A DNA stretch of 64,000 nt from Candidatus Omnitrophota bacterium (lineage in GTDB: Bacteria; Omnitrophota; Gorgyraeia; JAFGHF01), in the NCBI GenBank assembly GCA_020341815.1, contig CP070837.1, forward strand, positions 1,044,575 to 1,108,574, given 5' to 3'. The position numbers and the translations under genes were made by a program. Under the pieces are notes generated by a model. The model did no database searches, had not been told where the DNA came from, and worked only from the letters and a program-made list of their open reading frames with translations. The first letter of the stretch is position 1. The number at the start of each line of letters is the position of its first letter. Positions 45,281-49,387 of this stretch are shown here, piece by piece.

Positions 45281-48200
45281 ATGAAAAAATCTAAAATTAA
45301 AAAAACCAAAAAAGCGGAGCAAAAAGAAGAGACGCTTGCCGCAGAGCAGCCGCACAAGTATGACGCCCGCACCATTCAGGTGTTGGAAGGGGTGGAGGCC
45401 GTACGCAAGCGCCCGGCAATGTATATCGGAGATATCTCCACCGCCGGGCTTCACCACTTAGTTTATGAAGTGGTTGATAACGGCATCGATGAGGCAATGG
45501 CCGGGTATTGTAAGAATATCCATGTAACGGTCCATGCCGATAATTCGGTGACCGTAGCCGATGACGGCCGGGGTATCCCCGTAGATATACACAAGACCCA
45601 GAAAAAACCCGCGGTGGAGGTGGTAATGACTACCTTGCATGCCGGAGGCAAGTTTGACCACCGTGTCTATAAAGTTGCCGGAGGTCTGCACGGGGTGGGA
45701 GTGAGTGTAGTCAATGCGCTTTCGGAATGGCTTGAGGTAGAGGTCAAGCGCGACGGCAAGGTTTATCATCAGCGTTATGAGCGCGGAAGGACCGTTTCCA
45801 AGCTTACGGTGGTAGGCAAAAGCGCCAAGAGCGGCACGCGCGTAACCTTTAAGGCCGATAAGGAAATCTTTACGCAGAAAATATGTTACAGTTTTGATAT
45901 TCTTTCCCAGCGCCTGAGGGAGCTGGCCTTTTTAAATAAAGGCATTAATATTATTCTGGAAGATGAAGATCAGGATAAACGTAGTGAATTCAATTTTTCC
46001 GGCGGCATTAGTTCTTTCGTGGAATATTTAAATAAGAATAAGACACCCCTGCATAAAAAGGTAGTCTATTTTGCCAAGGAAAAAGACGGTGTTAAGGCGG
46101 AAGTCGCTATGCAGTATAACGACGGCTATGCGGAAAATATCTTCAGTTACGCCAATAATATTCACACCATAGAAGGTGGCACTCACCTTAGCGGCTTTAA
46201 ATCCGCGCTTACGCGCACCATTAATCAATACTGCAAGAATAAAAATCTATTAAAGGGGGGTATTTCTTTATCGGGGGATGATGCCCGAGAAGGCCTGACC
46301 GCGGTTATCAGCGTCAAGGTGCTCAACCCTCAGTTCGAAGGTCAGACCAAGGCCAAGTTAGGTAATTCCGAAGTTTCCGGGATTGTTGAGTCCATCGTTA
46401 ATGAGTCATTAGGGTCATTTCTTGAGGAACATCCTTCCGTAGGTAATGTCATAGCCGGCAAAGCAGTTACGGCCTCCCGGGCGCGTGAGGCGGCGAGGAA
46501 GGCCCGTGAGCTTACCCGGCGAAAAGGCGCTCTGGAAACAGGAGGGCTTCCCGGAAAACTTGCCGATTGCTCTGAGCGCGAGCCTGAGCTTTGTGAGCTG
46601 TATATTGTCGAAGGCGATAGTGCCGGGGGTAGCAGTAGACAGGCAAGAGATAGGCGTTTTCAAGCCATCCTGCCAATCAAGGGTAAAATTCTCAATGTGG
46701 AGAAAGCGCGTTTGGATAAGATGCTCAGCAATGAAGAAATCAGGACTATTATTACCGCCTTAGGCACCGGCATCGGCAAGGAAGAATTTGATATCTCCAG
46801 ACTGCGTTACAATAAGATTATTTTAATGTGCGACGCTGATAGCGTAACGGCCGACACCCCTGTTTTACTTTATGACAAAGAAAAACAACAGTTTTTCTAT
46901 ACGGAAGCCGGACCGTTTATTGAAAGCTGTCAAGACCCATCAAATTATCAAATAATGTCCTTTAATGAACAGGAAGGCAGGTTAGATTTAAAAGATATTC
47001 ATCAGCTTATAAAGCATCCCCGTAGAACACGAATATTTGAGCTTAAGACATATTGTGGTTATACGGTTAAAGTTACTTCCTGTCATAGTATTTATGTATG
47101 GGAAAAAGGCAAAGCCATCCTGAAAGAGGGCAGTAAAATTAAGGAAGGCGACCGTTTGATTTTCCCCTTGCGCTTTCCGCGCAATGGCCAGGATATGCAA
47201 ATTAATCTGGCCGAAGTTTTATTTGAACGGGAAGAAAAAAAGGAGAACATTTCAGTTCGGCTAAAGAAGGGAACAGTTGCTGAAATTCCTCAGGAAGCAT
47301 GGATAGATTTACCTCGACCTATGTGGCAGAGGCTGCAAGCCCGCCGGCAGTCGCTGAACATTTCGCGCTTTGAGATGGCTAAATCAGTCGGAGTCTATAA
47401 AACAGTAATTCAGCAGTGGGAGACAAAGGCAGATAATGTTATGCCGCGATATAATAAGTTTAAATCGTATCTCGGCCAGATCAAGGCCGAGCTGAATGAT
47501 TTTGATTATCAAATCTTTCTGCCTCTGCAAAGATGGCAAGGGCAGGGCAGGAATAATGGCGCGGGGATTTTCCTGGACAATCATACAAGGCAAATTAAGA
47601 CGAGAATAAAGGTGGACGAAGATTTGGCATATCTGTTGGGATGGTTTTTAGGCGACGGCTCACAGGCTTGCACGAGCGGTAACCCCAACCGGTTTATGCT
47701 TTCAATCGGGCACGATAAGAATGGACGCTATACTCAACAGCTTAAGCAGGTTATCCGCAAGGCCCTTGGCGCAAATATAATCGTTGACCGAAAATTAGAT
47801 GGTTGTACAATTTTACATTTTCATTCGTTTACCTTTAAATTGTTATTAGAATATTTAGGACTTTTTGGCAAAAGAGCCTTTGAGAAATTCATTCCCGATA
47901 TTTTCTATAATGTTAAAGAACCGGTGCAGCGGGCATTGTTGCGAGGCCTGCTGGAAAGCGACGGTTATATCGTTGTCGGCAGAGGCAAGAAGAAAAAACG
48001 TTATGGCGATCGCAAGGTTGTCGGCTTTTGCACTTCTTCTTTAAGGCTGGGCCGGAATCTGATTTTTCTTCTTCGCCAGTTAGGGGTATTCCCGGCGGTA
48101 TCGCGCCAGCGGCCAAAAAGTCATACCCGAAGAGGTAAGCTCTTTAAAGCCAATTATGAGATCGATGTGTGTGTTTCTACAAAAGAGCAGCTTTTAGCCA

Positions 48201-49387
48201 TCCGCGATATCTGGTCCTGCCATAAAGATGCCTGGAAATTAGAGCCGTGGCTTTCTTCAGGCCAGCGCCGTGGCAATTGGGGCAGGAAGCTTGCGTCGGT
48301 CAATAGCGATTTTGTAGCTTTGGAAGTTAAGTCCGTTAGGGAAGTGAATTGCGGGGATAAATATGTCTACGACTTCTCGGTGCCGGGGAATCAAAATTTT
48401 ATTGCTGGTGAAGGAGGAACGGTTCTTCATAACACTGACGGTTCGCATATCCGCACCTTACTGCTGACCTTCTTTTATCGTCAGGTGCCGGAATTGGTGG
48501 AAAAAGGCTATATCTATATCGCCCAGCCGCCGCTTTATAGGATAAAGCGAGGCAAGCGGGAGGAATATATTGATACGGAAGAACGGATGAACGAGTTGCT
48601 TCTGGATATGGGCAGCGAAGGCATGAGCTTGAAGTGTGTCAAAGACAAGAAAGCCTTTTCCGATAAACAGATTAAGAAACTTCTTGAGCTCCTTGTGGAA
48701 CTGGAAGGCCTTTCTCGGGCAGTTGAGCGAAAGGGAGTGAGTTTGGCAAAATATCTGGCTTTGAGACACCCGAAGACCAAAAAACTACCCATTTTTAAGG
48801 TAAAAGTGGAGCATAAAGACCAATTTCTCTATTCTGACCAGGAGTTGGCTAAATTAACTGCCGAAGAGGAGAAAAAACGGGGCAAGACCCTGGAGATTCA
48901 CGAGGCAGGGGAAGAGGCAAACGAGAAGAATAGGAAGCTGGACATCGTAGAGTTTTACGAAGCTCGTGAGCTGGAGAAGCTCCTGGAGGCAATTGGGAAG
49001 ATGGGCATCGATGCGGTAGCCCATTATGAGAAGCCAAAGGAAGAAGAAATAGGGCGAGCAAAAAAATCCAAGCCTTCCCCGATTTATAAAGTTACCTATG
49101 ATAGCGAAGAAAAACCCGTTTATTCTCTCAAAGAGTTGTTGCGCTTTGTCAAGACTGTTGCTAAGAAAGGAATGATGATTCAGCGCTACAAAGGCTTAGG
49201 GGAGATGAATCCGGCGCAGCTCTGGGAGACCACGATGGACCCGGCCCGGCGCACAATTCTAAAGGTTACCTTGGAGGACGCAGTCAAGGCGGACGAGATG
49301 TTTACGGTGCTGATGGGCGATGCCGTCCAACCCCGCCGGGAGTTTATTCAGGCTCATGCCCGGGAAGTAAGGAATCTGGATATATAA
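45281..49387 (+). CDS. gyrB: DNA gyrase subunit B interrupted by a 531-aa intein
   Basis: Normal GHKL ATPase and Toprim/tail exteins totalling ~837 aa. The Toprim motif reads KIILMCDAD-[intein][17 protein letters not shown]. Confidence 0.9.
46841..48433 (+). mobile_element. GyrB intein (Ser1 ... His-Asn / Thr+1) with LAGLIDADG homing endonuclease and an HTH insert
   Basis: Block A-like [10 protein letters not shown] begins right after the Toprim DAD. Terminal VLHN is followed by TDGSHI. LAGLIDADG motifs [11 protein letters not shown] and [14 protein letters not shown]-like [26 protein letters not shown] between the N-splicing region and the endonuclease. Confidence 0.8.

Follow-up and report, generated by a model that had tools for sequence, protein, structure and literature searches.

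How can a bacterium maintain a DNA gyrase whose catalytic metal-binding motif is split by 531 amino acids (aa)? The question is raised by gyrB in a 64,000-nucleotide stretch of contig CP070837.1 from a Candidatus Omnitrophota bacterium (assembly GCA_020341815.1, positions 1,044,575 to 1,108,574; hereafter the window), in which one uninterrupted reading frame encodes a GyrB precursor of 1368 aa (Table 1). A preliminary description, made from the letters of the DNA, had proposed a 531-aa intein within the Mg-binding D-x-D-x-D (DxDxD) motif, and our analysis bears this out, since the in-frame insert of 1593 bp runs from precursor aa 521 to aa 1051, where it ends in VLHN, and lies between the second Asp and the following x of the DxDxD motif of the Toprim domain (LMCDAD/S…HN/TDGSHI, slashes marking junctions), presumably D498-A-D500/V501-D502 in E. 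coli GyrB numbering. Removal of the insert in silico gives an 837-aa GyrB reading DAD-T-DG, and the canonical form of the motif quoted earlier was also correct, the closest intein-less relatives reading DADVDG. In Pfam searches the insert scored 67 bits against Intein_splicing (cutoff 35.8) and 33 bits against LAGLIDADG_3 (cutoff 22.5), and the host Toprim match broke off at aa 520. That this is a genuine intein inside the Mg-binding motif is far beyond chance, because the same insert occupies the same site in more than 80 independent assemblies, and we put the probability of a mobile class-1 intein that harbours a homing endonuclease and is inserted in the Toprim Mg2+-binding motif of GyrB at roughly 90%.

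GyrB does tolerate large lineage-specific insertions, this protein having one of its own of ~170 aa C-terminal to the DxDxD motif, and the insert might on that ground be thought a permanent GyrB domain, or else an assembly chimera or a pseudogene. A Mg2+-binding triad could not work with 531 aa in between, however, all splicing blocks are present with Ser1, His-Asn and Thr or Ser at +1 invariant, the open reading frame (ORF) is intact and apparently under purifying selection, and the assemblies that share its architecture come from different projects. All three readings are scarcely credible and were rejected on the intact ORF, the splicing blocks and the recurrence across assemblies.

Conservation of the splicing residues was scored in 27 non-redundant relatives (from protein searches and two genome loci), counting each residue where it was covered. 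Ser1 was found in 18/18, the block B residues Thr79 and His82 each in 20/20, and Asp511 of block F together with the terminal His530 and Asn531 each in 26/26, blocks F and G both being present and invariant in the family. At +1, 21 members of the protein family have Thr and 5 have Ser, as do 57 and 9, respectively, of the metagenome loci described below. The Ser1, His-Asn and Thr+1 first read in the window are confirmed. Upstream of block B, K58-H59 aligns with LIRH of PI-TkoII (the Thermococcus kodakarensis DNA polymerase Pol-2 intein), His being found in 16/20 relatives and Lys or Arg before it in 19/20. This [K/R]-His 'NX' motif is a signature of oxyester inteins with Ser1 and Ser or Thr at +1 (Pasch et al., 2023; PMC10189870), and the combination of Ser1 with Thr+1, though uncommon, is known, with 58 inteins in 16 alleles in InBase (PMC10189870). 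The GyrB intein has every sequence hallmark of class 1, including those of the Ser1 oxyester subgroup, and with these motifs is very probably splicing-competent; it carries nine non-catalytic Cys residues, so is not literally cysteine-free.

From the motifs we infer a mechanism, to be set beside the anatomy, catalytic-residue conservation, polymorphism and purifying selection that are read from the sequences themselves. The 1368-aa precursor would be inactive and the Toprim metal unbound, because the metal-binding triad is split. An N-O acyl shift at Ser1, aided by Thr79 and His82 of block B and by the Ser1-specific NX His59, would be followed by attack of the Thr+1 hydroxyl on the resulting ester, by cyclisation of Asn531 with the aid of His530 and block F Asp511, and by an O-N shift that would yield the mature 837-aa GyrB, with DAD-T-DG in the motif and Thr in place of Val.

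The insert also contains the double LAGLIDADG endonuclease that had been proposed, with one catalytic Asp in each of two motifs, and these are conserved in 25/25 (Asp272) and 26/26 (Asp374) relatives, as is Lys349 of block D in 26/26. The domain has the alpha-beta-beta-alpha-beta-beta-alpha fold of solved LAGLIDADG enzymes, and Foldseek matched it to I-DmoI and I-Tsp061I, with target-normalised template modelling scores (TM-scores) of ~0.6-0.68, and to I-AniI and the WhiA nuclease-like domain at 0.46-0.65.

Intein-minus alleles, which the preliminary description had suggested looking for, exist in close relatives. A search with the extein-only protein found an intein-less GyrB of 96% identity (P0020) on contig L003, which shares the gene order dnaA-dnaN-dciA-gyrB-gyrA with the window at 93-94% nucleotide (nt) identity. 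L003 homology runs to position 46840 and resumes at 48436, exactly nt 46841-48433 being missing, and locally the two differ in nothing but the 1593-bp insert and the +1 codon (ACT for Thr in the window, GTT for Val in L003). The 45-60 nt upstream of the junction diverge from L003 more than average and the 45 nt after the +1 codon are identical; this pattern may reflect co-conversion, which, coming from one comparison only, is not relied on here. Among the 120 closest GyrB proteins (P0020-P0139) the DxDxD site is occupied by an intein in five and empty in 115. In a homing cycle the freed intein would cut intein-less gyrB at the DNA encoding MADAD/VDGSHI, for which the L003 empty site (Table 1) is a candidate substrate, and repair would copy in the intein along with its Thr or Ser +1 codon.

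An accessory domain with a helix-turn-helix (HTH) separates the N-terminal splicing lobe from the first LAGLIDADG helix. Modelled by AlphaFold2 together with short stretches of extein, the intein had a predicted local distance difference test score (pLDDT) of 84.9 and a predicted TM-score (pTM) of 0.83, and in a separate model of the accessory segment the core, for which four helices were predicted, reached a pLDDT of 86-96. All of the top-50 PDB fold matches of this segment are HTH_3-type proteins (HipB, P22 c2, SinR, C.BclI, 434 Cro, MBF1), with target-normalised TM-scores mostly of ~0.6-0.75 (range 0.31-0.78) and, in the best alignments, a root-mean-square deviation of ~2 A over ~60 residues. 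At sequence level, phmmer matched intein aa 161-196 to P22 C2 and 434-type repressors in the PDB, and BLASTP with a P22 C2 repressor sequence gave 44% identity to the core over 34 aa, including the …QWE signature. Pfam HTH_3 was found at the homologous position in 2/17 relatives (best E 3.6e-9), P0005 has a precomputed PF01381 annotation and one NCBI entry among the relatives is titled 'helix-turn-helix domain-containing protein', whilst W162, R169, S175-R176 and Q191-Q192-W193-E194 are near-invariant across relatives (QQWE in 21/22). The accessory core is an Xre/Cro/P22-C2 HTH and the similarity is real: it shares the helical fold and …Q-W-E signature of the Xre, Cro and P22 C2 HTH_3 domains (Pfam PF01381), but is embedded in an intein and has extra beta elements at its flanks.

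The preliminary description had therefore placed an XRE-like HTH correctly between the splicing and endonuclease domains, but its view that this is no standard intein component was too strong, since accessory domains are usual at this place in large inteins. Solved nuclease-bearing inteins generally have one, located between the splicing and nuclease domains except in PI-SceI, those of TliVMA and PI-TkoII have been described as HTH- or 434-repressor-like, and a 434 repressor domain has been swapped in experimentally (Beyer et al., 2022; PMC8966425). What is somewhat unusual is that the domain can be recognised from sequence as Pfam HTH_3 in some relatives. In a search of 1.84 billion representative proteins, full-length matches to the accessory domain came from only ~7 clusters, and all of those with extein sequence are GyrB inteins at the DxDxD site, the other matches being generic multi-HTH_3 proteins; the module was not found in inteins at other sites in this collection, and this version of it is therefore specific to the DxDxD gyrB allele. 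The most likely role of the Xre-type HTH would be to add DNA contacts beside the cleavage site, a role already proposed for accessory domains in PI-SceI, PI-TkoII and TliVMA, and on balance we expect it to bind target-flanking DNA.

The divergence between related inteins bears on whether the element still moves. The window was compared with L004, a relative that also carries the intein and has exteins 84-89% identical to those of the window. The ratio of nonsynonymous to synonymous substitution rates (dN/dS) came to 0.11 in the intein as a whole, 0.06 in the HTH, 0.09 in the nuclease and 0.05-0.07 in the exteins, which points to purifying selection on the gyrB ORF and the intein alike, these ratios being rough because synonymous divergence (dS; 1.43 for the intein, 1.48-1.50 for the exteins) is, at ~1.4-1.5, near saturation. 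L001 and L002 have N-exteins 92.5% identical and inteins only 71% identical, which points to independent acquisition or faster turnover of the intein. The G+C content at third codon positions (GC3) is lower in the intein (0.45) than in the exteins (0.53-0.57), which is suggestive only and not diagnostic, as dnaN in the same window is equally low.

These data also speak to the idea of a decaying intein, which would still splice, gyrase being essential, and in which endonuclease and HTH would be dead relics inherited only vertically. Many fixed inteins have inactive nucleases. PhoVMA is an example (PMC8966425). A dS in the intein equal to that of the exteins is compatible with long co-residence, and the accessory domain is partially deleted in P0008 and P0014. 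Decay would nevertheless have to be reconciled with a LAGLIDADG Asp pair and block D Lys that stay invariant (25-26/25-26) down to 36-45% identity, with dN/dS in nuclease and HTH as low as in the splicing lobes, with presence/absence polymorphism at 93% nt identity, with the same intein in three very distant host lineages, and with the L001-L002 comparison, which argues for horizontal movement. We consider decay unlikely; the nuclease is probably active, and the intein is apparently still mobile.

Several observations nonetheless count against a mobile and fully functional element, among them the near-saturated dS and the undiagnostic GC3 just given. The NX His is replaced by Lys or Arg in 4/20 relatives. 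The 115 empty alleles have Val at x in 75 cases and Ile in 20, with Ser in 15, Thr in 4 and Phe in the remaining one, so that Ser or Thr occurs there in 19/115 (e.g. P0033, DADSDG, and P0041, DADTDG). Such residues might have been left behind when an intein was precisely lost, or might be permissive variants that were there beforehand, the latter being the unfavourable case if they are standing variation, although both readings fit a homing cycle of gain and loss. The window's own intein has no Pfam HTH family at E<=1, only relatives having one, and the HTH call therefore rests on relatives, pairwise alignment and the predicted fold. Finally, the deletions in P0008 and P0014 fall within the accessory domain, so at least some lineages do not need it to maintain the element.

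The conserved HTH (QQWE and dN/dS as above), together with a position at which splicing gates gyrase activity by interrupting an essential catalytic motif, might instead suggest a domesticated intein that benefits its host by conditional splicing or by a cellular DNA-binding role of the HTH, for example by tuning gyrase maturation to the state of the DNA. Conditional splicing has precedents in other inteins (e.g. PMC6195587). A host benefit sits poorly, however, with 115 of the 120 nearest GyrBs lacking an intein at this site and with a sporadic spread across phyla and domains as expected of a selfish element; the Ser/Thr chemistry lacks the redox-sensitive Cys of known sensor inteins, homing alone accounts for the conserved nuclease residues, and we found no evidence for regulation, nor any of a transcription-factor role for the intein HTH. 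We regard domestication as very unlikely.

Amongst known inteins the fold ranking in the PDB was PI-TkoII, TliVMA, PhoVMA, PI-PfuI and PI-SceI, followed by mini-inteins and free LAGLIDADG enzymes. PI-TkoII (also PI-PkoII; 2cw7/2cw8) was, as 2cw7, both the best fold match (E 2.7e-25) and the best PDB sequence match (E 3.4e-14 over aa 33-531). PI-TkoII is comparable in length (537 aa) and arranges its domains as the GyrB intein does, with an accessory domain and then a double LAGLIDADG nuclease between two splicing lobes; it is likewise a Ser1 oxyester intein (PMC10189870), and its accessory domain has been described as HTH-like (PMC8966425). It differs in its low identity (17%), its archaeal PolB host, its hyperthermophile source and an extra 'domain IV' (PMC8966425), and as its accessory domain is absent from the top-50 fold matches of that of the GyrB intein, the two accessory domains may not be homologous. 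TliVMA and PhoVMA (7qss, 7qsu, 7qst), ranked 2-4, likewise have the accessory domain between splicing and nuclease domains, that of TliVMA being 434 repressor HTH-like and influencing the choice of cleavage site (PMC8966425); unlike the GyrB intein they have Cys1 and an archaeal V-ATPase A subunit host, identity is 13-15%, and their HTH likeness is structural only, whereas that of the GyrB intein is also detectable by sequence. The 'cysteine-independent' class-1 inteins (Psp Pol-1, Mja/Mvu TFIIB, PolB16, Aes123 PolB1) likewise have Ser1, Thr or Ser at +1, a block B His and the NX motif, and the Mja/Mvu TFIIB mini-inteins align strongly to blocks F and G of the GyrB intein, but all sit in other host genes at other sites. 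The nearest relatives outside gyrB are P0017-P0019, 21-23% identical over the full length and also with Ser1/Thr+1, which have a LAGLIDADG nuclease and no recognisable HTH_3; their hosts are metagenomic NAD-dependent epimerase/dehydratase-family proteins by Pfam, and the junction (RIFN/SILADETV...HN/TYGPRM) recalls UDP-glucuronate decarboxylase.

A second GyrB insertion site, EGDSAGG/C...HN/S(A/S)KQGRD, we take, from the Ssp GyrB sequence, to be that of the named 'gyrB' allele (Synechocystis Ssp GyrB type, in cyanobacteria, haloarchaea and others). A PDB search with an EGDSAGG-site gyrB mini-intein returned no solved GyrB intein that could anchor the Ssp GyrB site. The named allele has the same host protein and Toprim domain, but its site is ~80 residues upstream of the DxDxD site, it has Cys1/Ser+1 chemistry and no HTH_3 domain, and, where it is not a mini-intein, its insert is HNH-like (HKHHxDFNKLNNNPDN) and not LAGLIDADG. 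A single 'gyrB' intein allele, common to cyanobacteria, haloarchaea and others, has been listed (Soucy et al., 2014; PMC4071816). We rejected it as the identity of the DAD/S intein, since the insertion points differ and both are occupied together in P0191. Homologues of the named allele, with EGDSAGG/C...HN/S junctions, occur in 7/120 of the closest GyrBs, from close Omnitrophota relatives (P0036, P0039, P0040, P0043, P0071, P0090, P0117) and together with DxDxD-site inteins in P0006, P0008 and P0191, whilst P0033 has an intein in the ATPase N-box (EVCDN/S...HN/SIDEA); three further sequences of the 120 are irregular at the N-box motif. P0191, a GyrB of 2143 aa that clusters with P0006, holds three inteins at once (EVVDN/S...HN/STDEA in the N-box, EGDSAGG/C...HN/SSKQGRD and MADAD/S...HN/TDGAH). 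At the EGDSAGG site (46661-46690, GyrB aa 461-470) the window sequence departs from the GGSAKQGRDR or GGSARQGRDR of most relatives.

The DxDxD-site intein itself was found in more than 80 metagenomic gyrB genes of Omnitrophota, Patescibacteria and one Aenigmarchaeota bin, its first residue being Ser wherever the N-junction is covered and the +1 residue Thr or Ser throughout. A profile scan gave 75 metagenome-contig loci with inteins 36-74% identical, and the DAD/S...HN/[TS]DG context was present in 58/58 loci with both junctions readable. Source names are Candidatus Omnitrophota or Omnitrophica, 'Patescibacteria group bacterium' (the cluster of P0143/P0190) and 'Candidatus Aenigmarchaeota archaeon' (the cluster of P0005/P0192); 'Dehalococcoidia' for P0031 and 'Planctomycetia' for L002 are odd labels, and as the exteins of both are 77-83% identical to the Omnitrophota-type GyrB of the window, these are probably mis-binned. 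On viral contigs no close relative was found, only four distant matches of 23-24% identity covering nuclease and C-lobe, which gives no sign of carriage by phages. The exact window GyrB is absent from the protein collection searched, and the names of its nearest GyrB relatives point to an Omnitrophota host. GyrA of the window has no intein, as had been stated, since its Pfam DNA_topoisoIV match is contiguous over profile positions 1-432 of 432. In an Omnitrophota metagenome-assembled genome (JAHIPS010000016; L001, 8496-13523) GyrA is 1675 aa long with two inteins, at ARIVGE/CFVRDT and at the classic AAAMRY/CVGGDS...SHN/TEARM.

Public annotation pipelines already tag such GyrB proteins as intein- or LAGLIDADG-containing, and some database entries name relatives only 'LAGLIDADG family homing endonuclease' or 'helix-turn-helix domain-containing protein'. 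The DxDxD gyrB allele was not described in our literature search, InBase and InterPro lying outside that search, and a gyrB Ser1 allele was not found in the searchable text of the supplement of Pasch et al. The element is a known kind of selfish homing element and no new biology, at a gyrB site without a name in the literature found. A bolder reading, in which the DAD/T allele represents an intein lineage not yet described that took its Xre-type HTH, recognisable by sequence, from a phage or host repressor, seems to us doubtful and rather improbable. Were it true, and were the HTH to extend or relax target recognition, this could explain how the element spread between Omnitrophota, Patescibacteria and DPANN archaea. 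Its presence would then be a sign that DNA physically passes between these ultra-small organisms, which share groundwater habitats. As a natural Ser1/Thr+1 (redox-insensitive) intein, it would also provide a scaffold in which the DNA-targeting module can be exchanged.

Table 1. Coordinates of the gyrB intein, its parts and neighbouring features, in window positions unless a contig is named. A slash marks the insertion point.
Feature	Position (nt)	Strand	Content or evidence
gyrB precursor ORF	45281..49387	+	1368 aa plus stop; ORF list; Pfam HATPase_c, DNA_gyraseB, Toprim (interrupted), DNA_gyraseB_C
N-extein, aa 1-520	45281..46840	+	ends KIILMCDAD; -1 residue is second Asp of DxDxD
Intein, 531 aa, class 1, Ser1...His530-Asn531	46841..48433	+	sequence motifs, Pfam, AlphaFold2 model, fold matches
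N-terminal splicing (HINT) lobe, ~aa 1-112	46841..47176	+	block A, NX motif, block B
Block A Ser1 (AGC)	46841-46843	+	N-terminal splicing lobe
NX motif K58-H59	47012-47017	+	in LIKHPRR, upstream of block B
Block B T79-x-x-H82 (T79-S-C-H82)	47075-47086	+	N-terminal splicing lobe
Accessory domain, ~aa 113-255 (~140 aa)	47177..47605	+	short beta elements around Xre/Cro-type HTH core; AlphaFold2 model of segment
HTH core, aa 161-214	47321-47482	+	predicted fold, phmmer, BLASTP
Double-motif LAGLIDADG homing endonuclease domain, ~aa 256-470	47606..48250	+	Pfam LAGLIDADG_3; fold matches
LAGLIDADG motif 1, Asp272	47624-47662	+	ends ...272GS
Block D Lys349 in EKFIP	47879-47899	+	endonuclease domain
LAGLIDADG motif 2, Asp374	47933-47968	+	ends ...374GY
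C-terminal splicing lobe, ~aa 471-531	48251..48433	+	block F and block G; 51 aa align to Mja/Mvu TFIIB mini-inteins
Block F with Asp511	48359-48409	+	C-terminal splicing lobe
Block G GGTVLHN	48413-48433	+	C-terminal splicing lobe, ends His530-Asn531
+1 nucleophile Thr (ACT)	48434..48436	+	fills x of D-x-D-x-D; Val (GTT) in intein-less alleles
C-extein to stop	48434..49387	+	includes ~170-aa insertion C-terminal to DxDxD motif, plus GyrB C-terminal domain
gyrA, 810 aa, intein-free	49390..51822	+	ORF list; Pfam DNA_topoisoIV
Empty site ...ATGGCCGATGCCGAT/GTTGACGGTTCGCATATC...	L003 gyrB		candidate cleavage substrate; from L003 alignment
Empty-site centre ATGGCCGATGCCGAT/GTTGACGGTTCGCAT	L003 gyrB		junction of intein-less allele
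C5 DNA methylase	53611-54669		island gene
BpuJI-like restriction endonuclease	54666-56081		island gene
C5 methylase fused to Vsr	56069-57484		island gene
Ser/Thr protein kinase	59964-61130	minus	island gene
Large serine recombinase	61985-63622		island gene

The surroundings of the gyrase genes hold further features. A genomic island of ~11.1 kb (52497-63644) follows directly after a tRNA-Glu gene (52419-52496). The last 12 bp of the tRNA, TTGGGGTCGCCA, stand at both of its borders as a direct repeat (52485-52496 and 63633-63644); the island is absent from the 93%-identical L003, homology to which resumes at 63633. Also missing in L003 are the ~590 bp between the gyrA stop and tRNA-Glu (51823-52418), which hold a DUF6036/DUF2204 nucleotidyltransferase-like ORF (51971-52417) that is possibly half of a toxin-antitoxin pair. 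Upstream, gene orientation switches at 41129-42317: ORFs of at least 200 aa from 3931 to yidC (39369-41129) are all on the minus strand, and the plus strand carries the genes that come next, dnaA (42317-43690), dnaN, dciA, gyrB and gyrA. The switch region is likely the replication origin region.

For the organism, these results mean that its true gyrase B is the 837-aa protein, the 1368-aa ORF being best annotated as a precursor. To intein biology they add a gyrB allele with many members that interrupts a catalytic metal-binding motif, and they indicate that in GyrB of the Omnitrophota and Patescibacteria type three sites are open to inteins. The GyrB intein changes nothing in how inteins are understood to work. 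The similarity of its accessory domain to Xre repressors supports the proposal, already published, that DNA-binding modules are recruited by inteins, and Ser1/Thr+1 inteins of this kind are sought for redox-independent protein ligation.

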